NCBI GenBank assembly: GCA_963699545.1
Contig: CAVOUE010000005.1
Span: forward strand, 384,001-448,000
Reading direction: 5' to 3'
DNA length: 64,000 bases
DNA from: Nitrospirota bacterium
Lineage (GTDB): Bacteria > Nitrospirota > Thermodesulfovibrionia > Thermodesulfovibrionales > UBA9159
The position numbers and the translations under genes are program-made. This document shows positions 4,727-63,023 of the stretch, one piece after another (position 1 is the first letter of the stretch; every line of letters begins with the position of its first letter). The notes under the pieces are model-generated. The model was not told the origin of the DNA. It saw only the letters and a program-made list of their open reading frames with translations, and ran no database searches.

Positions 4727-6105
4727 GATACTTGTCATAGGGACAAGTCTTCTTGACAGGAGCTTCGAAGCTCTGTCCAGACACGGGGAAGCATCCAAAT
4801 TCAAATCTCTCGGCAGTGTGCATGTCAGGGCGGATGATCAGGTCGTTCTTCTCATCGTTGATAAGGACCAGCATAGGGAGCCGACCTTCAAAGATTTCGT
4901 AAGAACCTTCGCGGACGTGCCGAAGATCATCATATCCCATGATGATTCCTTCAGAGGCTTCGCCCGCTGGCTCAGGCTTCCCCTCACCTACCCGGTGCAT
5001 AATCCGGGCGAAAAGGAATTGGTCTTTCTCGCCGATCGTCTCGTGGCCGAACGGGACGTGCAATCTGAGAACAGGAAACTGAGGAATGACCTTTTTACCT
5101 CTCAGAGGGAGCTGGAATTCTTTGATGCGGTCGGGAGGGTCCTTACCTCGGACATGGAGCTTGATAACATGCTGGTCGTCATTATGAAAAGGACCAGGGA
5201 TATGATCAGTGCCTCGTCGTGGTCCATTTACCTCCTGGATGAAGAGACAGGAGACTTCGTGCTCGAAAAGACGGACGGAAGGAAGAAGAAAGACAAGGCC
5301 CTCAAATTGAGGTTGAAGCCGGGGGAGGGAATTACGGGCTGGGTGATCCAGGAAGGAATTCCCCTCATAGTTCCGGACGTTCTCCCGCGATGCACGGTTT
5401 GCAGGCTCAGCCCGCAGCCCTCGAAAGGCGATATCACTCATCTGTGTCCCGATTAAGAACAAGGAGCGCGTTATCGGTGTCATGGAATTTGCGGACAAGA
5501 CCACCGGCAGCCCCTTCACCAGGGATGACCTTAACCTCCTTCTGAAGATCGTGGATTATGCCGCCATTTCCATAGAAAGGGTCTCCTTGTACCATAAGAT
5601 GGCCGAACTGGCCATCACTGATGACCTCACCAAGCTCTTCAATTCCCGGTATCTGAACAGGACCATCGAGGTCGAGATCCACCGCTGTGAGCGTTCGCGC
5701 ACGTCGGTCTCTCTTATCTTCATGGATATCGATTATTTCAAGAATGTCAATGACCATTACGGTCATCTGGTGGGGAGCAAGGTCCTTGTGGAAGTGGGAC
5801 AGCTTCTCATCAAGAGCCTACGCTCCATCGACATTGTGGCGCGCTACGGAGGGGACGAATTTGTGGTGGTCCTTCCCCAGACCTCGCCGGATGTGGCGAC
5901 AAAGGTGGCCGAAAGGATACGAAAATCCATCGAACAGAACGTCTTCCTGAAGAAGGAGGGCTACGCCATCAGGATAACCGCCAGCTTCGGTGTCGCCTCC
6001 TATCCCGAGAGCGCAAAATCGAAAGAGGAGCTCCTAAAACTGGCTGACGAAGCGATGTACAGGGTGAAGAACTATACTAAGAACGGGGTTTATGCAATCA
6101 TGTAG
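4719..6105 (+). CDS. GAF-domain diguanylate cyclase (GGDEF); split by one apparent frameshift near 5380
   Basis: ORFs 4719-5456 (GAF) and 5482-6105 (RYGGDEF) join if one T is removed at about 5380, giving ...[39 protein letters not shown]... Confidence 0.88.
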
Positions 6106-18012: not shown

Positions 18013-18345
18013 TCAGGAGGCAAGAAGGAAATCGATCTTTGCCTTGAGCTGCGGCTTGGGAACCGCTCCCACAATCTGGTCGACTTTCTGACCGTCTTTA
18101 AAAAACATTACGGTCGGTATCCCCATGATCTTGTAGCGGCTTGCGATGTCCGGATTCTCATCAGTATTAAGCTTCGCCACCCGTATCTTTCCCGTATATT
18201 CCGTTGCAAGCTCCTCAACCGTCGGAGCGATCATCCTGCATGGTCCGCACCATACCGCCCAGAAATCCACCATGACCAAGCCCTGACCCTGAAGAATCTC
18301 TTTATCCCATGTATCGGTCGTCACATTTACAATGCCTTCTGCCAT
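18013..18345 (-). CDS. trxA: Thioredoxin
   Basis: [16 protein letters not shown]. Confidence 0.97.
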
Positions 18346-18567
18346 ATGAACCTCCTGAAATTAATTGGTCTTTAATTATATTTGCTGAACCCCCTCTTTG
18401 TCAACGCAATCCCCGTTCATCAAACGCAGACAGAGGAGAGGACATTCACTCGCCCGAAAGGCACATCCTCAAAGCGACGACAAACGTAATCATCTTTTGT
18501 TCTGTTCGCTCCGTTACAACGCCGTCCGCCTTAGCTGTCAACTGACCGAACCTCTTCAGAACAGGCG

Positions 18568-18972
18568 TCACTCAATATCTGCCGAGTAATCCGACAATGC
18601 GCCGATCGAAACTATCTTCCCTTTGAATCCCTTTCGATTAAATTTTCCATAGGCCATGGAATTATCATAGAAACGGATATGCTTTTTTTCTCTGTCCAGA
18701 TCAAACTTGCCGCCACCCACAATGACCCACGCAGGTTCAAAGATGTCATAGCGGTTGCCTTCGCTGTTACGGGACCCGTGAAGCCCTTTCTCTCTGCAAA
18801 AACGCTCTACGATATCGGCATGGAAGGAGGCAACTTCCCTGGGAGCGAGAACAAGGTATTCCGTGGTTCTGTGCCTTATCTGCACGAACTTGCCCGAAAG
18901 GTTGGACGACAGAGGCACCCCGGCTTCACGGTAATGGGAGGATTCCGAGTAATCAATAAGAATAACGTCCAT
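18568..18972 (-). CDS. PHPT1/Janus-Ocnus-like putative phosphohistidine phosphatase
   Basis: Ordered motifs GKFVQIR, FHADIV, GGGKF, KKHIRFYDNSMAYG parallel human PHPT1 FKYVLIR, YHADIY, GGGRI, KKIHVYGYSMAYG (recalled from memory). Confidence 0.7.
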   Translation of the reverse strand: MDVILIDYSESSHYREAGVPLSSNLSGKFVQIRHRTTEYLVLAPREVASFHADIVERFCREKGLHGSRNSEGNRYDIFEPAWVIVGGGKFDLDREKKHIRFYDNSMAYGKFNRKGFKGKIVSIGALSDYSADIE

Positions 18973-18994: not shown

Positions 18995-19684
18995 TTACTT
19001 ATTTCCTCCTCTGCCCTGCAACTTCTCAAGTGCCATTTCTGCCTGACCCTTTACGATGGAATCCTTCTCATTCTCAACAATGCGCCGGATATGGGGAATC
19101 GCCTGAGGGTTTCCGATCTCTCCCAGTGCCTTGATGGCGCTCAGCCGGATGCTGACATGCTCGTCATTTAATACACCGATAAGGTGAGGGACCGCCTCTT
19201 GACTGCCGATCTTTCCCAGGGATGATATCGATGCCTCCCTCGTAAGAAGCTCCCGGTCAGTAATACCGCTGATCAGTGCATCCACCACGCGTGAATCCCC
19301 CTTGAAGCTGCCAAGCGCCAGAGCAGTGTATGACTTTATGGCAGGACACTCCCAGTTAAGGGTGGCGTCATTGAAGATCGGCAGCAGGACTTCAATTGCC
19401 CTCGGATCGCCTGTCTCTCCCAGCAATTGGATTGCCGTCACCTTGACCACCGTGCGCTCCTCTCTGGTGTTCACAACCTCCATCAGCAGCGTTACCGTTT
19501 TTTCATCCCTCGCATTGCGGAGCTTTTCCACGGTCGCGAGACGGACCTGCCAGTCCATATTATTCAGGCTTTCCCTGACCGAGCTCATGTCTTCAACGGC
19601 ATACGACGTCCCCGGGACGATCATCACCGCGGCAAACAAGATATAAACAAACGTTTTCCCAAACAACTTTCTGTAAAGCGTCAT
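18995..19684 (-). CDS. Exported HEAT-repeat (PBS lyase-like) protein
   Basis: N-terminal signal peptide, then repeats such as AIQLLGETGDPRAIEVL, SISSLGKIGSQEAVPHL, AIKALGEIGNPQAIPHI. Confidence 0.85.
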   Translation of the reverse strand: MTLYRKLFGKTFVYILFAAVMIVPGTSYAVEDMSSVRESLNNMDWQVRLATVEKLRNARDEKTVTLLMEVVNTREERTVVKVTAIQLLGETGDPRAIEVLLPIFNDATLNWECPAIKSYTALALGSFKGDSRVVDALISGITDRELLTREASISSLGKIGSQEAVPHLIGVLNDEHVSIRLSAIKALGEIGNPQAIPHIRRIVENEKDSIVKGQAEMALEKLQGRGGNK

Positions 19685-20312: not shown

Positions 20313-20387
20313 AGGCTCGTAGCTCAGGGGGAGAGCGCTTCCTTGACACGGAAGAGGTCGGCGGTTCGAAACCGCCCGGGCCTACCA
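20313..20387 (+). tRNA. tRNA-Val (GAC)
   Basis: Acceptor stem AGGCTCG/CGGGCCT, anticodon arm CTTCC-ttGACac-GGAAG, T arm GGCGG-TTCGAAA-CCGCC, encoded CCA. TTGACA lies at 20270-20275 upstream. Confidence 0.97.
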
Positions 20388-20395
20388 TTTAAGAT
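20341..20395 (+). repeat. attL core (3' part of tRNA-Val plus 8 bp)
   Basis: CCTTGACACGGAAGAGGTCGGCGGTTCGAAACCGCCCGGGCCTACCATTTAAGAT, identical to 30843-30897. Confidence 0.97.
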
Positions 20396-20402
20396 CAGGT
20401 AG

Positions 20403-21515
20403 TTAGGCATTTGCGACGGCCTCTTGTTTTTGAAAACTGTGAAGTAAATGTGAAGTGTGCACTTCGTTGACCTTTATCTCCGGTGCATTGTTGAGCACCT
20501 GATCAAGAACATTCACAGCATTCGCCAGGTGTGCCGGTGCCAGGTGTGAATACCGAAGAGTCATTTTGATATCTTTGTGACCCAGGAGTCTCGATACTGA
20601 GGTGAGGTCCACACCGGCCATGACAAGATGAGACGCGAAAGTATGCCGGAGATCGTGGAAGTGAAAGTCCTGAATCTTTGCCCTTCTCAATGCGCTGCCG
20701 AATGACCGTTTAACATCCTGGTAGGGTTTCCCGCTTGTCGGATCGTAAAAGACATAGGGAACATCAAGCCTTCTGGTGAGGCCCTGCAGCGTGCTCCTGA
20801 GAGTGGAATTAATCGGGATTTCCCGGCGCTCTCCGTTCTTCGTCTTGTCTAGGAGAATAAAACCATGCTTCAGATCAATGTGAGTATCCCATTTGAGTTT
20901 CAGAATCTCGCCCTTCCGCATGCCGGTGTTGAGCGCCGTTATTACAATCGGCCTCAAGTGCTGATCGCATGCGTTGATAAGATCCCTGCATTCCTCCTGG
21001 GAGAGATACCGGAGTCTCTTGTTTTCCGGGAGCATCTTCACCTTACGGATTTTCTTCAGAACGTCCGCCTCGACCATCTCCCATTCAACAGCCTTGGAAA
21101 ACATAGCCTTCAAGACATTCAGCGTCTTGTTATTGCTGGCACCTTTCAGGCCTCTGTTTATTGTGTCTGTCTGAAGTTGTTCAACAATGGCAGTGTTGAA
21201 TCTTCTAAGAGGGAGAGTTCCGAAGACATGCAATAATTGTCCGATGATATACCCCTTCACCCTCGCTGAATTCTGACGCCCGGCGATCCATGCCGTGTAT
21301 TTCTCTGCGAGTTCCGCAAAGGTGTGATTGCTGATCTTCTTGACCTCGGGTTCCTTTCCGTCCCGGATTGTTGCTCTCCTGCCATCAAGAAGCGTTGCGG
21401 CATCATCGTATTTCTTTTTTCCCGAGGACTCTCGCCGCATTCTTCCATCGAGGCCGACGTAGCATATCCAGTAAACAGAACCACGTCGATAAATTCCTTT
21501 ACCTCTTCTTGCCAC
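20403..21515 (-). CDS. Tyrosine recombinase / phage-type integrase
   Basis: TGMRKGEI (R), KTKN (K), FHDLRHTFAS (HxxR), LLGH, MTLRYSHL (Y): complete catalytic set. Confidence 0.97.
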   Translation of the reverse strand: MARRGKGIYRRGSVYWICYVGLDGRMRRESSGKKKYDDAATLLDGRRATIRDGKEPEVKKISNHTFAELAEKYTAWIAGRQNSARVKGYIIGQLLHVFGTLPLRRFNTAIVEQLQTDTINRGLKGASNNKTLNVLKAMFSKAVEWEMVEADVLKKIRKVKMLPENKRLRYLSQEECRDLINACDQHLRPIVITALNTGMRKGEILKLKWDTHIDLKHGFILLDKTKNGERREIPINSTLRSTLQGLTRRLDVPYVFYDPTSGKPYQDVKRSFGSALRRAKIQDFHFHDLRHTFASHLVMAGVDLTSVSRLLGHKDIKMTLRYSHLAPAHLANAVNVLDQVLNNAPEIKVNEVHTSHLLHSFQKQEAVANA

Positions 21516-21741
21516 TCTTCATCACCTTCCTTCCCGTTTTCATTTTCGTTCCCTTCTTCTTTCTGTCACCACCTTTCTTTACCTTCAGGCATTCAAGGGC
21601 GAGATGCAAGAAGGCCGGAACTTTTCTTTCCCCTGATTCCCATTGAGAGACACAGGGCCTTGTCACTCCCAGCAGTTTTGCGAGCTGCCCCTGGCTTAGG
21701 CCGTGGCGCTCTCTCCATACTGTCAGTTTCTTAGGTTCCAT
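21499..21741 (-). CDS. XRE-family HTH regulator
   Basis: RERHGLSQGQLAKLLGVTRPCVSQWESGERKVP; overlaps the integrase start. Confidence 0.9.
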   Translation of the reverse strand: MEPKKLTVWRERHGLSQGQLAKLLGVTRPCVSQWESGERKVPAFLHLALECLKVKKGGDRKKKGTKMKTGRKVMKSGKKR

Positions 21742-21747
21742 GTCACA

Positions 21748-21776
21748 ATGTTACCACAAAAGAAAGGCGTTGTCAA
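21748..21776 (-). promoter_or_regulatory. Sigma70-type promoter for xre-int, predicted leaderless transcript
   Basis: Minus strand TTGACA-17 bp-TAACAT with TGn extension; ATG follows 6 nt after the -10 box. Confidence 0.75.
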
Positions 21777-21789
21777 GCATTATTTTCAC

Positions 21790-21954
21790 GGGGTGGTCTG
21801 CAAGGGTCTGTGCGAAGTGGGACTGCTTGTGACTGATGCCGTTGGGAAGAGACGGTTTACTGCCTCTTTTGCCGTCCATACTTCCACCACGGGAAGTTTG
21901 CTCCTTTAATAACTCCCCCAGCTTCGCCTCGGCGTAAAGAAGTGCCTCACCCAT
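21790..21954 (-). pseudogene. Fragment resembling the N-terminal segment of phage-type DNA-methylase-associated proteins
   Basis: MGEALLYAEAKLGELLKE...SLPNGISHKQSHFAQTLADHP looks like a conserved phage protein segment but runs into the xre promoter with no catalytic domain. Confidence 0.35.
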
Positions 21955-22729
21955 GCGCTCTGGAACCGCTCTCTCGGTGCATGCTGTGGTATGGCTTCCC
22001 GTCAATCGTTCGCTCTCCGTCCATCCTGTCAAGGGCATTCTGTTACTTTTCATAAGAAATACTATTAACAACAAAAAAGAGAAGATAAAGAACGGTGGGT
22101 CTTCTCTCTTGGGTGCGTGTGGGTTCGTTCTGTTTGGTCTGTTGTGTATGTGTGCGCCCGTCGAGTCGAGGAGGTGCCTCTTGGTCGGGCGTCCGTGTCC
22201 GTAGCGGGTCTCTCTTTCCCGGGGGAGTGCGGTGCCGGTGTAGTGCGTCTCTGTCGAGGTGCGGAGATGTGGGACCGCTTCATGGTCTGGGCTTGGGTAT
22301 GGTCTACCCTTCGTCAATCGCTCCTCCTCTCTCTCTTGATGCCTGGACCTGTTCAAGGGGTGTAACGTGCCTCTTGCTCGCCAAAGGAAAGGATAAGACA
22401 GTCTCAGCGCCCTTTAGTAGTGTTTTGTTATTTGAGATCAGGGAGTAGGAGATACCATCCGGTCCCGATACCCGATGAAAATTGAACGGTTTCCTGATGT
22501 TACAGAAAACGTTACTTTTGGTAACATCTGTGCAACTGTTATTCATTAACTCTCCGATTTCTTTCGATCAAACATCAATAATCCTGTATATCAACAGGGA
22601 TCGTCCGCTTATGGTATAGAGCGTCTGATGAGGTAGACGGTCGAGGTAGACGGTTGTTGACTTCACTCTTTGGTTCACAGTTCAAATAAACCTCTTTATT
22701 TTCCATGCCTTTAAAGCCTGTCACTACCC

Positions 22730-23044
22730 TTATACGGTAGTGCTCACCCTACCCTTACGGGTGGGTTCTCCTACTCCCGGCGTCCAGTGCTTCTTTGTCC
22801 AAGCGTCGATCTCTGACTTCCTGAAGCGAAGCTGCTTATTCCCGAGCTTGAAGAAGGGGATCGTCTTCAGGTGTGTTTGCTCATAGATCCACTTATGCTC
22901 TACCTTCAGGTATCCAGACAGGCCCGGAACATCAAAGACAATATCCTCCTGGCGGTGCCCGTTGCCTGGAAGTAAGGGCTTCAGGAGTTCAAGGACCTTC
23001 TCGGCTATGGCCTCAACGTCCTGCGGTTCAAGTTCGGTTCTCAT
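22730..23044 (-). CDS. Excisionase/AlpA-like DNA-binding protein
   Basis: FDVPGLSGYLKVEHKWIY...IPFFKLGNKQLRFRKSEIDAW. Confidence 0.88.
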   Translation of the reverse strand: MRTELEPQDVEAIAEKVLELLKPLLPGNGHRQEDIVFDVPGLSGYLKVEHKWIYEQTHLKTIPFFKLGNKQLRFRKSEIDAWTKKHWTPGVGEPTRKGRVSTTV

Positions 23045-23185
23045 GCCGTCTCTGTCACGGAGCGCAGCCTCCCCCCCCCCCGTATGACCCTGAAGGCCCC
23101 GGCCCTCCTTTTTCTGGCCGTCGACCTCCTGAAAAAGAGATGATACCTATATCGAGATATTTACTGGCGTGCTGGCAAATCTTCC

Positions 23186-24316
23186 TCATTTTTTTTGCAT
23201 CCCTTCCAGCAGTTTAAATGCTCTTTTATAAGACTTCGCTGGATCTATTTTCGGCATAATGCCCGTATCGACAAATCGCTTCAGTTCTAACGAGACGCGA
23301 GTAAATACTTCATCCCAGTTACCATGGCTACCTTGTCGAAAAATCCGCATAGAATCATAAAAACAGGTATCTTCAAAACCAGGTGTCCATATCCAGTCCC
23401 AAATATGCTCAAACGGCAATAATGTCCAAACGGGAACCCCTAATGCACCTGCAAAATGTACTACATTGTTGTCTATGGCAATGATCAGATCAAGGCACGC
23501 TATCTGTGCAGCAAAACTTTCAAAGTCTTTAAGTGAGTCAGCAGGATCGGGCCAGTCATGAACGGTAACGCCGAAGTTGTCTTTGACCTCATTCAATTCA
23601 TCGGGGCGTGCTCCATATTGAAGATTCAACCAATGCACTCCCTGGATGGAAAACAATTTCCCCCACTGACCCAACTCCGTAGATTGCAACCTCCAAATTT
23701 CCCGCATCGGTACCTTGCGCCATGCGATACCAATTTTCAGCCCTTTACCGAGTGACTGAAGACGCTCGCGCCATACCTCGACTCTTTGAACGTCCGGGAT
23801 AAGGTGGCGTGGCGGCCACGGGAAGACATGGATATAAGCCATTCGTAAAAATACGAGATCATAGAACGAGAGAGACAGAATATTGCGAACCTGCCCGGAA
23901 TAATTCGGGTAGAGCGGGGAAGAAAGGAGCTCACATATTCCATCATTATTATTTCCCACTATAAGCAGTTCGGGATATGAACGTTTTAAAAGCCCTATGA
24001 TCCGATTATCATCAACAATGACAACACACAAATTATTTTCTGCGATTAAGGGAATAACGGGGAACCCCAGGATCGTGTCTCCTATTCCGATTTTATAGAC
24101 TGACTTCTTTAAAATGACGAAGACAATTCTATCCTTGATCTTCTCACCGCTTTTTAATGAGTGTATTACTTCAGGGGAAACATATTGTTCTATAAAAGAA
24201 TCAGAGGGACCCTTTATTACTTTATTGAGCCACTCAGCGCCTTTCGCTAATACATCCAGGAAGCTCTCGTTTCCAGGGTTATTCATGATCGAATGCTGTT
24301 TAATAAGCTTCTTCAT
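23186..24316 (-). CDS. GT-B (GT9-like) glycosyltransferase without TPR repeats
   Basis: GIGDTI, RIIGLLKRSYP, KIGIAW, NLQYG, AAQIACLDLIIAIDNNVVHFAGALGVPVWTLLP, FYDSMRIFRQ...GNWDEV. Confidence 0.8.
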   Translation of the reverse strand: MKKLIKQHSIMNNPGNESFLDVLAKGAEWLNKVIKGPSDSFIEQYVSPEVIHSLKSGEKIKDRIVFVILKKSVYKIGIGDTILGFPVIPLIAENNLCVVIVDDNRIIGLLKRSYPELLIVGNNNDGICELLSSPLYPNYSGQVRNILSLSFYDLVFLRMAYIHVFPWPPRHLIPDVQRVEVWRERLQSLGKGLKIGIAWRKVPMREIWRLQSTELGQWGKLFSIQGVHWLNLQYGARPDELNEVKDNFGVTVHDWPDPADSLKDFESFAAQIACLDLIIAIDNNVVHFAGALGVPVWTLLPFEHIWDWIWTPGFEDTCFYDSMRIFRQGSHGNWDEVFTRVSLELKRFVDTGIMPKIDPAKSYKRAFKLLEGMQKK

Positions 24317-24644
24317 ACATTCTCCGCATCTTCACACCCGGACTGTTGAAATGGAAAATGCTATAGTCGCAGCCGCGCCAGAATCGAGTCTGGAAGTATT
24401 TGTCGATAAGCAGGATCATGGTGTCGGCGTCGAAGTCGTGGCTGACAGTGAAATGATCATCAGCACAAAAAAGGGTCCGGCAGAGTCTTGACCAGGTTTC
24501 CGGTCTCGCCTTCCGGTATTCGGGGAGTGCGTACCCTTTACGCTTTTGCAAGAAGTACCGGATAACCTCATCGGCTTCCTCATCGACTTCATACTCTTCA
24601 GAAAATTCTTCGTAAGAGAGAGGGTCTTTCTTTTCAGTAGTCAT
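24300..24644 (-). CDS. Hypothetical protein, possibly the C-terminal domain of a phage-type replication initiator
   Basis: 114-aa ORF directly after the rep-like ORF; tail LIDKYFQTRFWRGCDYSIFHF. Confidence 0.55.
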   Translation of the reverse strand: MTTEKKDPLSYEEFSEEYEVDEEADEVIRYFLQKRKGYALPEYRKARPETWSRLCRTLFCADDHFTVSHDFDADTMILLIDKYFQTRFWRGCDYSIFHFNSPGVKMRRMYEEAY

Positions 24645-24714
24645 TTTTCACCCTTTAAAAAAAGAGACGCGAATTTTTCGTAAGGAAAATTCCCTTGTAG
24701 TTTTTCTTCTTCTT

Positions 24715-24801
24715 CTTAAGCTTAACCTTCATCTTAACCTTCTACTTAACCTTAACCTTCACGCCGTCCTTGTCCCGGAGTACTCCTGGACTTGTCCGGG
24801 A
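24715..24801. repeat. Iteron-like repeat cluster (putative origin)
   Basis: CTTAACCTTC at 24721, 24733 and 24751, plus CTTAAC and CTTAAG. CTTGTCC(C/G)GGA at 24769 and 24791 (22-bp spacing). GGAGTACTCC palindrome at 24777-24786. Confidence 0.65.
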
Positions 24802-25141
24802 ATGAGGGGAAAAGATCATCCCCGAGGCGGTCTTCTCTCAAAACTTGATGTCTTTTCCAATTCAGAGAGTGGAGGTATTCAACCCCGTCCACGGTGAACC
24901 ATTTAACAGAGGTTTCCTTTGAAATCTCATCCAGACATTTCTTGATTGTGGAAATATCGAGCCAGGCAATAAGCGGACAGCATTCGCCCTTAATGAAAAA
25001 AGGAGAGCCGTTCATTTTCCCGTGGGAGTTGAAGTGTGGGATAATCAGACAGAAAAGGGAAAGAGCTTTCGGGGAGAGGGCCGCGACTCCGTGAGAGCGA
25101 GCAATTGATTTTCTGATCATCCTGCCAGGTTCAGTTTTCAT
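24752..25141 (-). CDS. Phage-type replication initiator / replisome organiser N-terminal domain
   Basis: GRMIRKSI.S..VAALS...LF..IIPH...G, WFTVDGVEYL...NW.RHQ pattern typical of phage initiator wHTH domains. Confidence 0.65.
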   Translation of the reverse strand: MKTEPGRMIRKSIARSHGVAALSPKALSLFCLIIPHFNSHGKMNGSPFFIKGECCPLIAWLDISTIKKCLDEISKETSVKWFTVDGVEYLHSLNWKRHQVLREDRLGDDLFPSFPDKSRSTPGQGRREG

Positions 25142-25369
25142 CTATTCCCCTCACCTTTCCGCTTTCTTGCCCATAGCGTCATTTTATAAGTACCCCGGAG
25201 TCCCAAAGGGGACCATTTTGTTGTTCACCCCACGATCCGTCAATAAGCTCGCCTTTACTGACTGTGGCTCCCCTTTTCCTTGCTGCTCCTTTTGCTTGGC
25301 GGCATGGAGGTGCTGAGGAGGTGACAGGACTCCGGGATACACCCTATTTTCCTATTAGTGCACATCCCT

Positions 25370-26479
25370 TTATTTCATGCTGTAGTCGGTGAATGCCTTG
25401 AGTTCTTCGGCGCGTCTTCTCAGTGCCTCGCCTTTCAGCTTGTCGAAATCCCGGACAAAGTTCCGATTATTTAAAATCCACATCCTCAAAAGTTCCTGAC
25501 TGACTTCAGTGCCACGCGTGGTCAAAACCTTAAAGAATTCATTCGCAAGGCCATCGAAAAGTGTCAGTCGCTCAGGGTCAGTGATATCAGCACCCTCACT
25601 TCCTAAAGCCCGGATCTCTGTCAGGTCTGACACGAGTTGATCCCTCGCCTCACGATTCTTCTCCGAGTTGTGAAATGACATTACGATTTTCTTGATGGAC
25701 TGAGGGAGGTGAGAAACTTTACTGAGACCCCTGTCAGAGAACAGTCCTGAGAAAACATCCTTGGCATAGTGCGGTAACACCTGCTTAAAAATGAAGTCAA
25801 AGGATTCTTCAACAGCTTCATATTCCAGGGACCTGGAAAGACAACACATAATCGGCGCGACCCGCCTAAGACCGTTGCAAATAAAAAAGACCCATGCGTC
25901 TGCGCCTCGGGGTTCCACGGCTTTTTCCCGGAGAACTTTGAGCTTATCGTCGTCAACAAGCCCATCAATTGCCCTCCGGATTTCGAGAAGCCGAAGAATA
26001 CAATCGTCAGCACCACTCACATCACTTGCGCTGATGGCCTCGCTAAATTTGCCGATGCCTTTTAGATATGCAACAACCCCGATCACCCCCACGCCGCAAT
26101 AGATGGTAGGAAAAATGACCGCGAAGTCTTCAGGAAAACTCTTCTGGAACTCCTTAAATCGTCCATACGCACTAAACAGCTCCCCCTTTAACGTATGTTC
26201 GTTTATGGGCCGGTAACGCCCCTTTAACTCCGAGACCTGGTTAGGGAACGATACATAAGCCTGGGCAGTCAAGGAAGAGTTGTAGCCCGATTCCAGCTCA
26301 AGAACGACCGCATCGACAATCTGCATGTCCTGGTTGAAACTCGCTTCGTCGTGGAGATACTGATAATTGTTGTTCAGCGCAGCACAGCGCCCCAAGAATA
26401 AAAATTTTGCGTCGTAGAGTGCCACAACGCCCCTGGTATTTTTGCCGAAACCGTATACATCCCTTTCGATACTATCCAT
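25370..26479 (-). CDS. Hypothetical protein (369 aa)
   Basis: Long ORF, AAGGAG RBS, 6 bp after the upstream ORF; no motif recognised. Confidence 0.75.
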   Translation of the reverse strand: MDSIERDVYGFGKNTRGVVALYDAKFLFLGRCAALNNNYQYLHDEASFNQDMQIVDAVVLELESGYNSSLTAQAYVSFPNQVSELKGRYRPINEHTLKGELFSAYGRFKEFQKSFPEDFAVIFPTIYCGVGVIGVVAYLKGIGKFSEAISASDVSGADDCILRLLEIRRAIDGLVDDDKLKVLREKAVEPRGADAWVFFICNGLRRVAPIMCCLSRSLEYEAVEESFDFIFKQVLPHYAKDVFSGLFSDRGLSKVSHLPQSIKKIVMSFHNSEKNREARDQLVSDLTEIRALGSEGADITDPERLTLFDGLANEFFKVLTTRGTEVSQELLRMWILNNRNFVRDFDKLKGEALRRRAEELKAFTDYSMK

Positions 26480-26485
26480 TTTGTT

Positions 26486-26740
26486 TTACTCCTTTGGCAT
26501 TTGCATCAACACAGTGTGCATACGCCTTTTCAAATTTTTCATTTTGTCCACAAAGGTCCTGACATTGACCTCAGCCCCACCGTCAAACCTTCTTTTCGCC
26601 GCAGCGAATCGCTCATTTATTTCAAAGGTAAATACAGCCTTGCCGTTGGTGATGATGATTTCAGCAGGTTCATCGAGGTCCAGTTCAAAATACGAGGCTT
26701 CCGGGATCGAGAGAGTCGAGTAAATCTTTGGAATGGTCAT
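26486..26740 (-). CDS. DUF5659-like small protein
   Basis: 84 aa, YSTLSI.EASY...GKAVFTFE...VNVRTFVDKMKNLK pattern; GGAGGTG RBS. Confidence 0.6.
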   Translation of the reverse strand: MTIPKIYSTLSIPEASYFELDLDEPAEIIITNGKAVFTFEINERFAAAKRRFDGGAEVNVRTFVDKMKNLKRRMHTVLMQMPKE

Positions 26741-26822
26741 TGTTTCACCTCCTCTTCTTTCGTCTTCTTGTTTCTTTTTTTTGGCTACCCATCAGTTACA
26801 GATAGCGCAACTCAAAACAAAC

Positions 26823-27188
26823 TTACAAGTTAAACTTTTTCGCGCGCTCGGCTGCGTGGTCCCGGAGTGCCTGATTCCTTTTTTCTGTCTCTTCGTCAAT
26901 GTGCCTAAGAGACTCTTTTACTTCAGCGTCGATGCGTGCCTCCATCTGAGGTGAAAGCTTTCGAGGTCCGAAAATCGATTTGTATTTACGGTCGGTTTCG
27001 AGATCTGCGAATAGTCTTTTTCGGTCTTCACTTGGAAAGACTTTGTGTAATCGGTCCTTCTGGTCTTCATCCAGGCCAACTTTTCCGTTTTCAAACAACG
27101 AAAGGGTCGCCGCATTAATACCAGTGAGGTTTTGCAGGTCCATCAGAGTCAGTCTTTTTGCGGTTCTTAAAATTTTGAGTATCTTCAT
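26823..27188 (-). CDS. XRE/Cro-like HTH protein
   Basis: LKILRTAKRLTLMDLQNLTGINAATLSLFENG; AAGGAG RBS. Confidence 0.85.
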   Translation of the reverse strand: MKILKILRTAKRLTLMDLQNLTGINAATLSLFENGKVGLDEDQKDRLHKVFPSEDRKRLFADLETDRKYKSIFGPRKLSPQMEARIDAEVKESLRHIDEETEKRNQALRDHAAERAKKFNL

Positions 27189-27309
27189 TTTCGGCTCCTT
27201 GCGTGGCAATTGCTATTAATTATTTATATTAAATCTGATAAACGGGAGAATTGCGAAGTAACGCGCGCAGGTATCCGTTACTTGAATTGTCTTACTGTGT
27301 CAGCAGGGC

Positions 27310-28254
27310 TTACTTTTGGGTTTTCTGAGAGGACTTGCGTGCTGGTAGGAATTCGCTTAGATTGCGTATCGTTCGGGTTTTCTTTATAAGATCGAAAGCC
27401 TTATTAATTTGGTTGGTAATTAAACATTCTTTCTCTTCCCAATAATCATGCCAGGATTTACCATCTTTCCTCGGAGGTGCTTTCTCAAACTGTTTAAAAA
27501 TCTCGTCAAGGATCATGATAATAATTTTTCTCTTTCCTTTGAAGCCCTCCCTTTCGATCTCCTTGTATCTATCATATAATTTGAAATCGAGTTCTATAAT
27601 TTCGAACATCTCTTTGTCCGGGATAAGAGTATCCGCTGAAGTTCTCTTATCAAGAAACATTTCTCCCTTTAAAGTGGGGTTCTTTATGAAAAATCTCTTC
27701 TTCTCAATTTCAACGATTCTTTCTATCTCGTCACGTAAAATCTCCTTGGGCAAGGCTGGGTGATAACTGATATGTGCGGGCAGAGAAGGATCATAATAAG
27801 ATTTGATCAACCTGTTTTCTACTCTCTCGTATGTTTTCACAAGAGAATTATTTCCTAACAACTGCTTTGCCGCATACCGATTTTTTTTGTTTTTGTCATT
27901 GGCTTTTATCGCCTCATTCAGGTCTTTCCATTCAGCATCACTTAATGAATCCTTCGTTGGTTCCTGCGAGGAAGTTAAAATTGCATATTGACTCACCCTC
28001 TTTGTAATACTTCCAAAACGATCTTCATGTTGCTTTACAGTCCACCTTTCTCCTTTTATCAAACACGGCAATAAGGCATCTTTGTCTCTCAATTTCGCGT
28101 AATCCTCTCGGCGCTTTAGAGCCATAACAAACCAATAATGCGCTATATCATGAGGTGCCAAAATATGGCTCCATGAAGGAAAAGAACCTTTTTCGATGCT
28201 CTTGATATATTTCTGAATGGGGGTATCCAAGAGGGGTTCTTTTTTTTGTTTCAT
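27310..28254 (-). CDS. Hypothetical protein (314 aa, AT-rich, Lys-rich)
   Basis: Long ORF in the element; no confident motif. Confidence 0.75.
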   Translation of the reverse strand: MKQKKEPLLDTPIQKYIKSIEKGSFPSWSHILAPHDIAHYWFVMALKRREDYAKLRDKDALLPCLIKGERWTVKQHEDRFGSITKRVSQYAILTSSQEPTKDSLSDAEWKDLNEAIKANDKNKKNRYAAKQLLGNNSLVKTYERVENRLIKSYYDPSLPAHISYHPALPKEILRDEIERIVEIEKKRFFIKNPTLKGEMFLDKRTSADTLIPDKEMFEIIELDFKLYDRYKEIEREGFKGKRKIIIMILDEIFKQFEKAPPRKDGKSWHDYWEEKECLITNQINKAFDLIKKTRTIRNLSEFLPARKSSQKTQK

Positions 28255-28302
28255 CTGTCTCGTAGTGTTCTCCTTATTGCTGTTTTTTATTAAAACAACA
28301 TT

Positions 28303-28548
28303 CTAATACCAGGAATAACCTTTGCCCTGCATACAATAAGCTTCGCTATCTACCTGATCCATTAATCTCCTTGCTGCCATAGACTGCGCCTTGCATTGAT
28401 TCAGGTCTTGCCAGACTTCCTGCTGTGTTTTATTGGGATGATGCCAGCCTTGCCCTGTCCAGTACGTCGCACTTCCCCCCTGGATTGCCGGACCACAGGA
28501 TGAAAGAAGTACAGATAAACATACGCATGTAATTGTAATACGTTTCAT
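28303..28548 (-). CDS. Small lipoprotein
   Basis: AAGGAGG RBS; MKRITITCVCLSVLLSS-C lipobox; W..P..TQQ...D...C and CMQGKGY Cys pair. Confidence 0.8.
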   Translation of the reverse strand: MKRITITCVCLSVLLSSCGPAIQGGSATYWTGQGWHHPNKTQQEVWQDLNQCKAQSMAARRLMDQVDSEAYCMQGKGYSWY

Positions 28549-28625
28549 TTTATCCCCTCCTTGAGTCTCCGTGGTCATTTCCACCTGCTCAAAATATACT
28601 CCTGTCCCCCTGCAAAATCAAGGCA

Positions 28626-28651
28626 GGAGCCCCAGGTTTCCCCGAGGCCCC
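28626..28651 (-). terminator. GC-rich hairpin with GAAA tetraloop (terminator-like; weak U-tract)
   Basis: Minus strand GGGGCCTCGGG-GAAA-CCTGGGGCTCC. Confidence 0.5.
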
Positions 28652-28850
28652 TTACTTCCGTTCAGTTCTCCCTTTGATCCACCGGAACGAAAGACGGCAT
28701 TCTGTCATACTGATTTTCCAGCACGGAAATCCTGATGTCCGCAATTCCGTATTCAAACGCCATGATCCCGGTGGTATCTATCCTCAAAGAGATCGTGTGA
28801 TAACCGAGATCATGCAGAGCCTGCTCCGGGAGTTCTCCGAGGACACAGTG

Positions 28851-29663
28851 CTATCCTTTTTCTTTTTCACGCTCGGCCCTTCGTGCTGCTTGAACATATT
28901 GTTGGCCCCCGCGCGACGACTCTGGAGATCCCACAATTCCACCGCCGCACAGGGATGGCGCTTTCACGTCTTCCTTCCTGGTGGCTACGTACTCATCGAG
29001 TTTCTGCTTGAGGTTCGGCTTTTCGAGGAAGATATCCCGGACAAGATCACAAGGGTCAAAGGCTTCCACCTGGATTAAGAGAGCATCCCGAATGGATACA
29101 GGGTCTTTCTCCGGGTTTGCGTCCAGCTCTTCAATGAAACGCGTTATGGTCTGTCGAATCTGCTTCTTAAATTCCTCTCTCACTTTTGCCTGAGACTCCA
29201 AAAAACCCCCTTTGATCTCATTGAGCAGTGCCACCATAAGCTCTTTGCCTTCCTCTGCTTCTTGTTCCATCTTCTTCTCACTGCTCTCCATGAGGAGCTT
29301 GTAGAGGGTCATGCGGGCCTGAGATTTAGGGGGGAGCGTTGAGAGCATTTGTCGCCCGTATGTCTTAAGAAAATCAAGCTCCTTCTCTGGCGTCATATTG
29401 GCATTGACGAAATTCTCAAAGTCCATTTCCCCCGGAGCGGTGACAGGCGGCGCGGTAAGCGACTCCTTGTCCGCAGTGTTTATTTTTCTGTTGATCGCGG
29501 GCCGTGAGACGCCCAGGACCACACTTATGTTGCCGTCTGACCATCCCAAGAACGTTTTCAGCCCCCTGAGAAATTCCCGTGGAATGTGTGCTATTGTCCC
29601 GGACGGCTTCACGCCTTTCGCCAGTTCTTTCCACAAGTCGCTCCTGATCCTGCTTTCTTTCAC
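28851..29663 (-). CDS. Hypothetical protein with N-terminal HTH and coiled coil
   Basis: LRGLKTFLGWSDGNISVVLGVSRPAINRKI; GTGA overlap with the upstream ORF. Confidence 0.75.
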   Translation of the reverse strand: MKESRIRSDLWKELAKGVKPSGTIAHIPREFLRGLKTFLGWSDGNISVVLGVSRPAINRKINTADKESLTAPPVTAPGEMDFENFVNANMTPEKELDFLKTYGRQMLSTLPPKSQARMTLYKLLMESSEKKMEQEAEEGKELMVALLNEIKGGFLESQAKVREEFKKQIRQTITRFIEELDANPEKDPVSIRDALLIQVEAFDPCDLVRDIFLEKPNLKQKLDEYVATRKEDVKAPSLCGGGIVGSPESSRGGQQYVQAARRAEREKEKG

Positions 29664-29908
29664 TGGCGTTCCCCCCGTTCTTTCAATCTTTCTTTCACCG
29701 CTTCCGCAAAATACCGCTTAGCCTTCTCCCTGTCACCCATTGCGCAATAAGCGAATAGCAAAGCTGTGATGTACCCGTGCTCGCCTTTTTCCTCTAATGC
29801 CTTTCTACGCCTCGAACTTTCATCGGGATCCATCCGGTGGCTCATCTCCTCACACGCAAGTGTCCAAAACCCTTCACTTGGGCCTTCTACGTCTGTAATT
29901 TCGTTCAA
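29660..29908 (-). CDS. Hypothetical protein (82 aa)
   Basis: TTG start after AAGGAG; stop overlaps the next start. Confidence 0.65.
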   Translation of the reverse strand: MNEITDVEGPSEGFWTLACEEMSHRMDPDESSRRRKALEEKGEHGYITALLFAYCAMGDREKAKRYFAEAVKERLKERGERQ

Positions 29909-29977
29909 AACCGTTCTCCTTTCTGAGCTACAACTGATGTCCGCCTACGGAATAGTTGTATCCGCTTGCGATCTCTA

Positions 29978-30313
29978 TCACGTTGTCTTCGTTTTATAGC
30001 CACCTACCTGCCTCGCTGCTGTGTTGAGATAGGGTTCCAACTTTTCAATGGCTCTCTGGATCGCCTTATCCCATTCAAAACCGTTATACGGGCTTTCATA
30101 GGCCACCACACACAGCTCTTTGAGGATATTTCGGATATCCTCTGCCGGCAAAGGCCCGGTTTCCCCCGGAATAGGGTCACTGTGGGGGCCTGGGGGCTTC
30201 TCAGAAGCGATCTCCCCGGGACAGGTAACATCTGTCGAGCCACAATGCAGACAGGCCGTGGAGCGTTCTGACTGGAAATCAGTGTCACAGTCTGTGCAGT
30301 GCCAGGTCTTCAT
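29978..30313 (-). CDS. Hypothetical protein with N-terminal zinc ribbon
   Basis: CTDC...CLHCGS; GGAGGG RBS; 2 bp after the upstream stop. Confidence 0.7.
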   Translation of the reverse strand: MKTWHCTDCDTDFQSERSTACLHCGSTDVTCPGEIASEKPPGPHSDPIPGETGPLPAEDIRNILKELCVVAYESPYNGFEWDKAIQRAIEKLEPYLNTAARQVGGYKTKTT

Positions 30314-30315
30314 GA

Positions 30316-30666
30316 TTAATCACACCCTCCGAAAGAAAGGCCAAAGGCTCCCTTCAGGAGTGTACACACCTCGCTGACGGCAAGTTGGACTCCATTGAAA
30401 TCATATCCCTCAAGAGAGCCTTCCTTGTCCTCATCGTTTAAAACCGTCCTTACCGTGGTCAGACGGATCAAGGACTCTTGAATCAAAGTCTCTATCCGGC
30501 TTTTAGTATTCAGGTCATCCCTTGATGTCAAGAATCCCCCTACGGATTCCAGTTCACCGCAAACCATCATGCCGATCTTATCCAACCCGCACTTCTCGAC
30601 AACCTCACGGCATACTTTTAAATCCTCATTCTCCGCCTTCTTTTCTACTGCCTTCAAATTTGCCAT
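30316..30666 (-). CDS. Hypothetical protein (116 aa)
   Basis: AGGAGG RBS before ATG 30666 (MANLKAVEKK...). Confidence 0.7.
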   Translation of the reverse strand: MANLKAVEKKAENEDLKVCREVVEKCGLDKIGMMVCGELESVGGFLTSRDDLNTKSRIETLIQESLIRLTTVRTVLNDEDKEGSLEGYDFNGVQLAVSEVCTLLKGAFGLSFGGCD

Positions 30667-30842
30667 GTTAAGCCTCCTTTTTTTGTTGACTGTGAAGTTG
30701 TTGTGAAGTAAACATAGGGGTAAACCTTTCCGTGAGCGAGTGTTGAAATTCCTCAGATTGTGGTAAATTGGGAAAGTCTTGAAATAGAAAGAAAAAGAAA
30801 TAGAGGGAACTATACGGAAAAGGTTGACCCCATCTCGCAGCA

Positions 30843-30897
30843 CCTTGACACGGAAGAGGTCGGCGGTTCGAAACCGCCCGGGCCTACCATTTAAGAT
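30843..30897 (+). repeat. attR core (duplicated tRNA-Val 3' end)
   Basis: Exact 55-bp copy of 20341-20395. Confidence 0.97.
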
Positions 30898-31236: not shown

Positions 31237-34200
31237 GTGGAAATCCCTATTATAGAAAAAGATTCTGAACTGAAATTCCCTCATTTTACTGTGCTGAAGG
31301 CGTCCGCAGGCTCAGGCAAGACCCACATGCTCACCAAGAGATTCGTACAGTTCATTCTTTCTGAAAAAATATCGAAGAACAGACTGCGGAATATTCTTGC
31401 AATAACCTTCTCGAACAATGCCGCCAAGGAAATGAGGGAGAAGATCATCGAGTGGCTCAAATTGCTTCATTTCGGCGATCCGGAAAAAACTGAACAAATG
31501 CTTGAGGCGGTCTCGATGGACCGGGAGAAACTGGCGGAGCGGGCCGGCCAGATGGTGGAGGAGATACTCTGGAATTACGCTGATTTTGAGGTGAGGACCA
31601 TAGACAGCTTCATGACATCGATCTTCAAGACTTCCGCCATCGACTTTGGATTCAATACTGAGTTCGATATCCTTATGAACAATGATGCGCTCATGGAATA
31701 CTCTTTTGATTTGTTCTTGAGGGGCGTCCGGGAGGGCACGCAAGAGACAGAACTCCTTCTCAGTATAGTCTCAGCGATCCAGGAAGGGAAACAGGGCCAG
31801 GAAGCCTATATGTGGGACCCGTCATCAGCACTCCTTGAAGAAGTGAAAAGCCTCTACGGAAAACTCTCGGCAACCGGCAAGAACCCTATGATAGAGGACT
31901 ACTCAGGAGCCTTTGACGATATAAAAAATGAGATAAGAACTGCCATCGACGGCCTTGAAAAAGTGGTCCTCAAGTCAGGGCTCGGAAAACGGGCAAACTC
32001 TTCTTTCAGAGGCGGTCCTCGATCTCGTGAGGGAGGGAAGGTTCGCGGACCTGATCGGAAAAGGGCTTAAGAACCCACCTGTCAATAAGCCGGGGAAAGG
32101 CCAATCAGCCCTTCAGACCTCATTCGATCAGATTGTCGGACAGTGGGAGAACGCCTGCAGTCTTATCAACAAATACATTGCCCTCCGCGTCCGGTCCCGT
32201 TCCATGCCGTATCTCAAGGTATATGAATCTTTCAGAGAAATCGTCGAATCCGTCAAGAGACGTCAGGGCAAGGTATTCATCGAAGACATAAGCAGAAATC
32301 TTGCCGAATACCTTAACGAGGAAATCGTCCCGGACATCTATTTCAGGATCGGAGAGACAATCTACCACTTCCTGATCGACGAATTCCAGGACACTTCCCT
32401 CATTCAATGGCACAACCTTTTCCCCCTTTTCGAGAACGCTCTGTCTCAGGGTGGAAGCCTCTTCGTCGTAGGCGACACCAAACAGGCAATCTACGGCTTC
32501 CGCAACGCCGACTACACGATCATGAGAGAGTCCGAGCGCACCAACCCCTTCCCTTCCGCCAGGCATTACGTAAAGGAACTTACGACAAGTCGCAGAAGCC
32601 TCAAGAAGATCCTTGACTTCAATGAGAAGGTATTCAAGGAGATCGTGGCGGGAAATGACAAATACAAGGAGGCAGGGACCAGAAGCGGGCTGACCGACTA
32701 CGTCCAATGCGCCAGAGATGGCAGCTCCCAGGGATACTGCGAAGTGGTGCTGCAGGAAAGGGATGACGAAACCCCTCCAGAGCGGCGCGTCATACAGGAC
32801 CTTGTCGCAGAACTTAGATCGCGAGGGTTCAGCTATGGCGACATAGCCATACTGACCCGGAGAAATGAAGACGTCGTAAAGACCACCCTTTGGCTGAACG
32901 AGAAGAACATCGACTTCATTTCTTACAGCAACCTCGACATACGGAGAAGGAAGATAACCGGCGAGATAGTCGCGCTTCTGAACTTCCTTGATTCGCCCAT
33001 GGATGACCTCTCTTTTTCTACCTTCATAAACGGAGAGATCTTCGGCGCCTTGCTGCGTACGGACCATCCTGAGATCACTCCGGAGAGACTCGGGGAGTTC
33101 CTCTTTGGATATAGAGAGAGCCCTCCACTCTACAAGTCCTTCCAGAAAGAGTTCTCTCTTCTATGGGAGAAATACTTCGCCGGCCTTTTCAAGGCCTCAG
33201 GATATTTCCCGATCTACGACCTTGTGACAGAGGCTTACGCTGTCTTCAGGGTCTTTGAGACACTGGGGGACGAGGAGGCAGCACTTGTGAAGATCCTCGA
33301 AGCGGTCAAGGAGTTCGAGGGGGCCGGATACAACAGCATCAGGGACTTCCTTGACTTCGCAGGCGACAGCGACAGCGGCGAGTCAGAGTGGAATATGGAC
33401 GTCCCCAAGACCCTGGACGCTGTCAAAGTGATGACGATTCACAAGGCAAAGGGCCTCGGATTCCCCGCAGTCATTGTCCTTCTCTATGAAGGCCGGAACA
33501 GGGGGTTTGACTACATCATAGAGGAGGAAGAAGATGGGGTGCGGCTGCTCAAGATCAACAAGAAGACCATGGTCAGCGATCCCACTTTCGAGAGGCTCTA
33601 TGAAGAGGAAGCGACAAAGGAAAATGTGAACAGGCTCAATAGCCTGTACGTCGGATTCACGCGGGCAAAAGAAGAGCTCTACGTAATCGGCGTAAAGGGC
33701 AGAAGCGAGACATTTCCGTTCGATCTCCTTCCCGCAAGCGACTTTGCAGCCACGGTAAAACCTGACAGATGTGACATTCCTGCCGCAAAATCTTCTGAGG
33801 TCTTCAGTGTAAGACATCACCCTAAGCAGATAGAGGCAGAGGTCAGAACGGACGAGATGATCAGCGTCGGAGAGAGAGCGAGGGGAGAATTCATCCACAG
33901 GGTTCTTTACCACGTCGAATATCTGCACGATGACATGGAAAGCGTGCTTGAGGACATCATCAGAAGAGTCACTTCCGAAACAGCATCAGAGTCAGCCGCA
34001 GAGGGAGTAAAAAAGCTTCTTCTTCGCCTCTTCGGACGCAAGGAGATAGCGACCTACTTCGAACCCCGTCCCGGGAGAGAGGTGAAAAGGGAGCAGGAAT
34101 TCTCGGATGAAGAGGGACATCTCTTCAGGATGGACAGAGTCGTGATCGACCCGGACAGGGTTACGATCTTGGATTTCAAGACCGGGGGAGAAGGTTGGGC

Positions 34201-34321
34201 TGATGAGAAATACAGGGCACAAATGAGAAAATATATGAAGATCGCGAAGGACATTTATCCCGGTAGACGCCTGGAAGGCAGGATCGTTTATATAGACCTC
34301 GGAGAGATCAGGACATTATGA
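31237..34321 (+). CDS. AddA-like UvrD helicase-nuclease; apparent frameshift near 32008
   Basis: ASAGSGKT, AITFSNNAAKEM, LIDEFQDTS, VGDTKQAIYGFR, MTIHKAKGL, YVGFTRAK and C-terminal RMDRV...ILDFKTG nuclease motif, across two ORFs. Confidence 0.9.
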
Positions 34322-37158: not shown

Positions 37159-37450
37159 ATTTCAGGAAGTTCTCCTGCGTGATGGCGTTTCTGGGGAGGC
37201 CAGCGGGCTCATATTAACAGAAGTTCCTTCCAAGGAACAACCGGGGGATATCATGCACCGAATGCCCGGCTTGCATTCATTACAGCTTATTCTTGCATCC
37301 ATGAAGGAACTGGCAGACAAGGGAACCCATTCGCCCGCTGCCGTGGGTCATGCAGACCCGGCCTGTTCACTGGAAACTCCCGCCTCTTCCCCCTTTTCGG
37401 CATTGTTGCGGACCTCCTGGAATTCATATATAATGGTCATCAAGGTGGGC

Positions 37451-60992: not shown

Positions 60993-60993
60993 A

Positions 60994-61230
60994 TCACTCC
61001 ACGATATCCCCTTCCACAAGCTCTACGTCAATTCCCTGATCCCGCAACGACTGTATGCCTTTTCCGAGATTCTCTTCAGTGCCTTCCAGCTCCAGCACCA
61101 TCTCACCCACTGTCTCGGTGACCCGCGCCCTCCGTATGTTCGGCATCACGTCGAATCTCTTCGCCATGCTGAAGATCACCGGTTCCTTGATAAGCTGTTG
61201 AGGGAAGGTCAGCTTAATACGCCTTTTCAT
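60994..61230 (-). CDS. Stand-alone NIL-domain protein
   Basis: LTFPQQLIKEPVI...NIRRARV...GEMVLELEG. Confidence 0.85.
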   Translation of the reverse strand: MKRRIKLTFPQQLIKEPVIFSMAKRFDVMPNIRRARVTETVGEMVLELEGTEENLGKGIQSLRDQGIDVELVEGDIVE

Positions 61231-61320
61231 ATATCCTCCTCTTCGATTCGTTTCGGGTTCGGGGCAATGAGGTCGGCGAATATCTCAGAACCTCCCAACC
61301 CCGGACAAAGCCCTCTTACC

Positions 61321-61599
61321 CTAATGACAGCCCCCTGCAATAGCAGGAACTATGGATACCTCGTCGCCGTCCTTGACCACGGTGTCCTCCGCCTTAAGAA
61401 ACCGTATATCTTCTTCATTGACATAGATGTTCACAAATCTCCGTATCTTGCCGCCTTCAGATATCCTCTCCCCTATTCCGGGGAATCTTTTTTCCAGGTC
61501 TGCAACAAGACTGATGATGCTTCCTGCAATCCCTTCCACCTCTTCCTTCCCCTGCGTCAACCTCTGCAGCGGGGTCGGAATCCTCACTTTCACCGCCAT
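61321..61599 (-). CDS. MoaD/ThiS/CysO-family ubiquitin-like sulfur carrier with C-terminal extension (GG-CH)
   Basis: VRIPTPL, RRFVNIYVNEEDIRFL, DGDEVSIVPAIAGG followed by CH*. Confidence 0.92.
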   Translation of the reverse strand: MAVKVRIPTPLQRLTQGKEEVEGIAGSIISLVADLEKRFPGIGERISEGGKIRRFVNIYVNEEDIRFLKAEDTVVKDGDEVSIVPAIAGGCH

Positions 61600-61626
61600 T
61601 TCGATCACCTCCCTACTAATTACTCG

Positions 61627-62865: not shown

Positions 62866-63023
62866 ATGCACCTCCCGCTTTGCTCATTGTCAAGTGTTTT
62901 TTCGGAATCCTTTTTGAAAAGAAAATATATTTTACTCCAAATCGGAATAAAATAAAACAGGAACTACTGCAGGATTTCAAAATCAAGACAGTGACCCCAT
63001 GGCAAAACCACGGGAGGAAAGAG

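Follow-up and report, generated by a model that had tools for sequence, protein, structure and literature searches.

Phosphohistidine is central to bacterial signalling. The list of bacterial phosphatases that act on it is short: according to an excerpt from a 2020 paper, SixA is the only phosphohistidine phosphatase of bacteria for which an in vivo target had been proposed (PMC7948535), and part of another paper adds mycobacterial MutT1 at a later date (PMC12407098). The preliminary description of one gene in the window, by which we mean the whole 64,000-nucleotide stretch of Nitrospirota DNA that was analyzed, claimed that its product bears the signature of PHPT1, the phosphohistidine phosphatase of the Janus/Ocnus family. 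The locus raises the question of whether a bacterium encodes an enzyme of the PHPT1 type and, if so, on what such an enzyme might act.

The gene and the family of its product

18568..18972 (stop codon included), minus strand: gene of the PHPT1/Janus-family protein, 134 aa (open reading frame and translation, Pfam PF05005, profile and fold match)

The minus-strand reading frame that ends at 18568 has two possible starts, a TTG at 19029 (153 aa) and an ATG at 18972 (134 aa). The ATG was favored because relatives of the protein are mostly 133-134 aa long and can be aligned from residue 1; the TTG start would make the frame overlap the upstream gene. The 134-aa translation contains the four PHPT1 motifs quoted in the preliminary description, in the order given there: GKFVQIR at residues 27-33, FHADIV at 50-55, GGGKF at 86-90, and KKHIRFYDNSMAYG at 96-109. 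By reading of the sequence, the protein has no signal peptide.

Two checks had been proposed for the PHPT1 likeness, a HMMER comparison with the Ocnus family and a structure prediction compared with PHPT1, and both came out in its favor. The protein matched Pfam PF05005 (Janus/Ocnus) at 26.7 bits (E 6.1e-6), above the curated gathering score of 23, with residues 36-114 aligned to positions 29-94 of the 108 in the profile. Ocnus was the sole match in the Pfam scan at E <= 1, and no model was matched in the NCBIfam scan. Conservation was assessed in 36 close relatives and in 95 diverse bacterial representatives with a mean column identity of only 33%; PF05005 was matched at E <= 0.01 by all 36 of the former and by 84 of the latter.

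A search of the PDB with the single sequence did not retrieve PHPT1 (top match, a ChlaDUB2 fragment at E 0.6), so profiles were required for its detection. With the profile of the 36 close relatives, PHPT1 (2ai6, 2nmm, 2hw4) was the best match at E 1.2e-4, followed by a match at 0.13; with the profile of the 95 diverse representatives, PHPT1 was found at E 4.8e-7 and the next match at 0.19. PHPT1 entries were the only ones below E 0.1 for both profiles. For a profile of the N-terminal half (24 sequences, residues 1-75, carrying Lys28 and His51), PHPT1 was not among the PDB matches at E <= 10. The best nonsignificant matches of that profile were the C-terminal domains of the kinases BRSK1/2 (E 0.28 and 1), over the GKF...HADIV..F stretch, and are probably due to chance.

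The 36-sequence alignment served to build a confident AlphaFold model, with a pLDDT of 88.6 and a pTM of 0.83. When this model was compared with the PDB by Foldseek, PHPT1 chains took the first five places, with E 1.2e-6 to 2.2e-5, a probability of 1.00, and a TM on target of 0.58-0.74. The match in sixth place had an E of 0.1, and PHPT1 alone fell below E 0.001. Three independent lines, namely the Pfam family model, the profile matches in the PDB, and the predicted fold, thus indicate that the PHPT1 likeness is real. As judged from sequence and model, we regard the window protein as a genuine PHPT1/Janus-family homologue, and the signature that was first noticed in its motifs is borne out.

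The window protein and human PHPT1 (PDB 2hw4, 2nmm, 2ai6, 2ozw, 2ozx) have the Pfam family and the predicted fold in common, and both are single-domain proteins of near size (134 and 125 aa, respectively). In contrast, identity in the structural alignments is only about 20%, the human enzyme is invisible to a single-sequence search and is missed even by a profile of the N-terminal half of the window protein and its relatives, and the host of the window protein is a bacterium. Drosophila Janus-A, Janus-B, and Ocnus, which are animal, testis-linked proteins and the ones after which the Pfam family is named, likewise belong to PF05005. In part of a paper from 2026, Ocnus is taken to be the PHPT1 of the fly (PMC13602238).

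SixA may do the same job as the window protein, but its fold and chemistry are unrelated. In the excerpts available, NPr (PMC7948535) and Ndk (PMC12934123) are named as proteins whose phosphohistidine is dephosphorylated by SixA, which is placed in the histidine phosphatase superfamily, with a phospho-histidine enzyme intermediate (PMC7948535). No histidine-phosphatase (phosphoglycerate-mutase-like) domain was detected in the window protein by the Pfam scan at E <= 1 or by the NCBIfam scan. With SixA in that other superfamily and the window protein matching Ocnus only, the earlier statement that SixA is unrelated to the PHPT1 type holds.

Active-site residues and candidate chemistry

18889..18891, minus strand: Lys28 codon (GKF motif), proposed counterpart of human Lys21 (conservation, motif order, fold)
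18820..18822, minus strand: His51 codon (F50-H51-A52), proposed catalytic general base (invariant, inside the Pfam-matched span 36-114, helix start in the model)
18706..18717, minus strand: Gly86-Gly87-Gly88-Lys89 codons, GGG-basic loop (ungapped alignment to human Gly75-Gly77 and Arg78)
18652..18660, minus strand: Ser105-Met106-Ala107 codons, proposed phosphate-binding loop (ungapped alignment to human Ser94-Met95-Ala96)

The activity of human PHPT1 is described, in an excerpt, as depending on contributions from Lys21, His53, Ala54, Arg78, Ser94, and Ala96, and its binding site as including Tyr52, His53, and Met95 (PMC4817053). Plausible counterparts of the activity residues in the window protein are K28, H51, A52, K89, S105, and A107. 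The HMMER alignment paired, without gaps, Gly86-Gly88 with Gly75-Gly77, Lys89 with Arg78, and Ser105-Met106-Ala107 with Ser94-Met95-Ala96, so that the GGG-basic loop and the Ser-Met-Ala-Tyr-Gly loop are likenesses to the human enzyme, with Lys in place of Arg78 as a difference. Because the PDB alignments reach only the C-terminal half, the equivalence of His51 with His53 and of Lys28 with Lys21 was drawn from the Pfam span, the fold, and the order of motifs. Phe50-His51-Ala52 lies in the Pfam-matched span and would, from this position, the whole-chain fold match, and the motif order, mirror human Tyr52-His53-Ala54, in both proteins an aromatic-His-Ala sequence opening the first long helix. For Lys28, the proposed correspondence to Lys21 is based on motif order and fold; in the model the residue is on the first long strand, outside the Pfam-matched span and within the half whose profile did not match PHPT1.

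The spacing of the residues can also be compared. If His51 is paired with His53 and Gly86 with Gly75, 13 extra residues lie between them in the bacterial protein, and the Pfam-matched stretch of the window protein, with 79 residues on 66 profile positions, likewise exceeds the profile by a net 13. This agreement is consistent with the pairing of the two histidines and is suggestive rather than proof. Phe58-Cys59, which follows the proposed catalytic His and is invariant in the close relatives, is a further difference from the human enzyme.

His51, Gly86, Ser105, and Gly109 were invariant in 95/95 diverse representatives, and His51 also in 36/36 close relatives. Lys28 was Lys in 36/36 and 92/95, respectively. 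In the diverse set, Tyr108 was kept in 92/95, Ala107 in 76/95, and Ala52 in 73/95; glycines 86, 87, and 88 were kept in 95, 94, and 93 of 95; and position 50 was aromatic (Tyr in 66 and Phe in 21 of 95). Position 89 was Lys in 35/36 close relatives and was variable across the wide bacterial family (Arg in 21, His in 19, Lys in 17, Trp in 9, and Met in 8 of 95). In the predicted model, His51 is the first residue of helix 51-62, and the Ser-Met-Ala loop is located between strand 98-102 and helix 116-122.

Family membership alone is no proof of activity, as it is still unclear, according to an excerpt, whether the Janus proteins of Drosophila serve as phosphatases (PMC4817053). The same observation would fit a Janus-like binding or regulatory protein that has retained the fold and lost the enzymatic role, as would the divergence of the N-terminal half past sequence detection of PHPT1. 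However, the proposed catalytic His and the Ser and Gly of the phosphate loop are invariant in 95/95 sequences despite the 33% mean column identity, a pattern typical of a conserved active site, and we consider such a loss of catalysis quite improbable. The window protein is probably catalytically active.

Taken together, the PF05005 score, the profile matches in the PDB, the predicted fold, and the invariant active-site residues point to a small soluble cytoplasmic PHPT1/Janus enzyme that most likely hydrolyzes phosphoramidate (P-N) bonds, above all those of protein phosphohistidine; we give this reading a probability of about 0.6. Whereas family membership, predicted fold, and residue conservation could be read from the data, we infer catalysis, P-N specificity, and any target. 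Phosphorelay proteins, PTS carriers, and nucleoside diphosphate kinase come into consideration as substrates.

In the proposed mechanism, the pocket for the phosphoryl group of the substrate would be made up of the beginning of helix 51-62, with His51 and the Ala52 backbone, and of the Ser105-Met106-Ala107 loop, including Ser105 and the backbone of Ala107. Lys28 and Lys89 would supply positive charge. His51 would serve as a general base that activates a water molecule for direct hydrolysis of the P-N phosphoryl group, and no phospho-enzyme intermediate would be formed. The analogy is drawn from human PHPT1, for which an excerpt reports that His53 is the general base with no phospho-enzyme intermediate and that PHPT1 dephosphorylates bacterial CheA in vitro (PMC11277029).

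Relatives and gene neighborhood

In a first protein search, 258 of 259 candidates passed E <= 0.001. Close relatives, where named, came from Thermodesulfovibrionales, Candidatus Sulfobium, and other Nitrospirota metagenome-assembled genomes, and were annotated as "hypothetical protein". A scan of one genome per species with two peptide patterns gave 64 loci, a number that under-counts distant members because both patterns were drawn from the close subfamily. Fifty-nine of these loci had Nitrospirota-type titles, and the others were three from Thiohalomonadaceae (32-34% identity), one with a Betaproteobacteria label, and one labelled "uncultured bacterium". In an exhaustive profile search of the library, 339 clusters (50% identity) passed E <= 0.001, and 243 of these also passed E <= 1e-10. 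A distant subfamily, P0181, occurs in uncultured Gammaproteobacteria such as Competibacteraceae and Acidiferrobacterales, and most of its members have no Pfam tag. Almost all of the carriers found are uncultured.

Viral and plasmid sequences were also searched. No relative was matched by tblastn in a phage collection (50,697 records) or a plasmid collection (72,556 records), nor did Foldseek against viral structures (BFVD) give any at E <= 0.001; among these structures, an uncharacterized protein of Tenacibaculum phage pT24 came closest (E 6.5e-3). A look-alike ESM Atlas cluster of 66 members, 55% of them with PF05005, has 40% labelled as viruses (Uroviricota). Phage-borne PHPT1-like proteins are a weak lead.

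It had been asked whether such homologues are already catalogued, and automatically they are. A precomputed PF05005 tag was present on 96/120 relatives among the matches listed and the JGI name "Janus/Ocnus family" on 4/120 of the same; the nearest ESM Atlas clusters are also named Janus/Ocnus, with Nitrospirota as the commonest phylum. Our literature search for bacterial PHPT1 homologues found no paper describing one. Part of one paper states that PF05005 consists mainly of cyanobacterial proteins (PMC10989767), and the excerpts available from reviews place PHPT1 only among mammalian enzymes (PMC11277029, PMC12687438, PMC6429109, PMC7948535). Bacterial members of the family are thus machine-labelled in databases yet uncharacterized, and the window protein is a further bacterial member of a known enzyme family.

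The genes next to the PHPT1-like gene were as follows.

18995..19684, minus strand: HEAT-repeat gene, 229 aa, upstream and co-directional, signal-peptide-like N-terminus (Pfam HEAT_2, HEAT_PBS)
18375..18404, minus strand: sigma-70 consensus promoter, 12/12 (TTGACA, 18 nt, TATAAT), downstream of the PHPT1-like gene and upstream of thioredoxin (promoter scan)
18013-18345, minus strand: thioredoxin (scan of window ORFs)

Read along the minus strand, the order is tRNA-Val (20313-20387, itself on the plus strand), a 79-aa ORF, a terminator-like site (19882-19859), the HEAT-repeat gene, and the PHPT1-like gene, followed by the promoter (18404-18375), thioredoxin, a TlpA-like redoxin, ffh, rpsP, trmD, rplS, and rnhB. 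The HEAT-repeat protein matched HEAT_2 at E 1.4e-32 and HEAT_PBS at E 8.7e-21. By reading, its N-terminus resembles a Sec signal peptide, with basic residues followed by a hydrophobic stretch and ...SYA/VE, and the protein may be exported. Only 22 nt on the same strand separate the end of the HEAT-repeat gene from the start of the PHPT1-like gene, and the scan found no terminator-like site between them, so co-transcription of the pair in this genome is plausible. The consensus promoter between the PHPT1-like gene and thioredoxin suggests that the pair and trx are separate transcription units.

The preliminary description had presented the two genes as co-transcribed, and that part remains plausible for this genome; as a pairing it did not extend to other genomes. 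The synteny of the window was shared only by two of the 64 loci, the closest relative (L001) and the next closest (L002). In L001, the HEAT-repeat gene and trx are present. L002 has trx, redoxin, and ffh and no HEAT-repeat gene, its tRNA-Val lying directly upstream of the PHPT1-like gene. Counted over the 64 loci, the window neighbors recurred as HEAT in 1, thioredoxin in 2, the TlpA-like redoxin in 1, and Ffh in 1, and with recurrence in only 1-2 loci the context is read as genus-level synteny, not as a functional cluster. A two-gene module with an exported HEAT-repeat partner would account for the common strand, the 22-nt gap with no terminator-like site, and the occurrence of the pair in L001. 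However, the HEAT homologue is adjacent in 1/64 loci, the arrangement in L002 dispenses with it, and a signal-peptide-like N-terminus was read on the HEAT protein only, which would put the two products in different compartments. The missing conserved adjacency largely refutes such a module, and we give it hardly any weight.

Neighbors were also clustered de novo in the 64 loci from crude ORF calls of >= 70 aa. The commonest were convergent MltG/YceG (18 loci), UbiB/ABC1 (19), AlaS (14), and upstream, same-strand OppB/C-like permeases (17). GGDEF/EAL proteins were encoded near the PHPT1-like gene in 12 loci and immediately adjacent in 6, two of them (L009, L024) having a receiver domain and being divergently transcribed. 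Further co-directional neighbors were MazF, PmbA/TldD, MetRS, redoxin, Ap4A phosphorylase, and dCTP deaminase. In one locus (L035, 4092-5402), the Ocnus domain is encoded in a single 437-aa ORF together with part of an OppC-like permease, of which only profile positions 1-77 of 184 are matched; this is probably a permease frameshift or an assembly error and not a true fusion. No recurring histidine kinase, HPt, or PTS gene was found near the PHPT1-like gene in the 64 loci, and the window ORFs that were scanned included none. The proposed action on histidine kinases or HPt proteins therefore found no contextual support, and the neighbors, being heterogeneous housekeeping genes, give no pointer to a substrate. 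The signalling genes observed in the window are related to c-di-GMP and not to two-component systems (a GGDEF protein at 5482-6102 and a GAF + HD_5, HD-GYP-like, protein at 37253-38776).

A context of this kind would also suit a PHPT1-fold hydrolase for other N-phosphorylated species, such as phospholysine or small phosphoramidate metabolites, in place of protein phosphohistidine. Kinase, HPt, and PTS genes are not conserved neighbors in the 64 loci; the basic position 89, a presumed substrate anchor in human PHPT1, is highly variable across the bacterial sequences; and excerpts report that PHPT1 also dephosphorylates chemically phosphorylated lysine in histone H1 (PMC12687438, PMC11277029). 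However, the sequence gives no sign of a small-molecule pathway, the neighbors are heterogeneous housekeeping genes, and the characterized family members named in the cited papers, as far as the excerpts go, all act on proteins. We consider this alternative unlikely and retain the protein phosphohistidine phosphatase as the preferred reading.

If a bacterial PHPT1-type enzyme of this kind is confirmed, it would add an unrelated fold and a direct-hydrolysis chemistry to the short bacterial list, and it would suggest that PHPT1, which is mostly treated as a mammalian enzyme, arose in prokaryotes. A hint in this direction is how broad the bacterial family is. A wider proposal, which we put forward tentatively and with more doubt than confidence, is that PHPT1 is a branch of an old and diverse bacterial family (339 clusters) and not an animal invention, and that in Nitrospirota and uncultured Gammaproteobacteria the family would form a second, SixA-independent class of phosphohistidine phosphatases that resets phosphorelay, PTS, or NDK-type phosphohistidines. 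The reach of these proposals is limited at present because the carriers are almost all uncultured, the gene context is without a target, and the family is already labelled in databases.

Other features of the window

An integrated element of 10.5 kb occupies 20341-30897 and has two identical 55-nt direct repeats at its ends (20341-20395, 30843-30897); the repeated sequence covers the 3' part of the tRNA-Val (20313-20387). At the tRNA end lie the genes of a tyrosine integrase (20403-21515, minus strand) and of a small HTH protein (21499-21741); between 21.7 and 31 kb, most ORFs lack a Pfam match. The element is absent in L001 and L002, as the tRNA there is directly followed by AddAB-like genes. 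The PHPT1-like gene lies about 1.3 kb outside the element.

The AddA/AddB-like helicase-nuclease genes of the window (31237-37155) appear to be disrupted. Two separate ORFs (31237-32067 and 31955-34318) together correspond to the UvrD-type gene, and the homologue of a 940-aa protein of L001 and L002 is in four pieces in different frames (34333-35151, 35177-36130, 36132-36518, and 36523-37149). These breaks could be frameshifts or sequencing errors. Relative to the PHPT1-like gene, the AddAB-like block is inverted compared with L001 and L002.

A minus-strand cluster at 59934-63498 includes the genes of two PLP-dependent enzymes, one at 59934-61019 and one at 61630-62871 that also has a NinF-type zinc ribbon. 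Its other products are a ThiS-like sulfur-carrier protein (61324-61608) and a JAB-domain protein of the prokaryotic type (63052-63498). We take this cluster to resemble the sulfur-carrier-dependent systems for cysteine or threonine biosynthesis.
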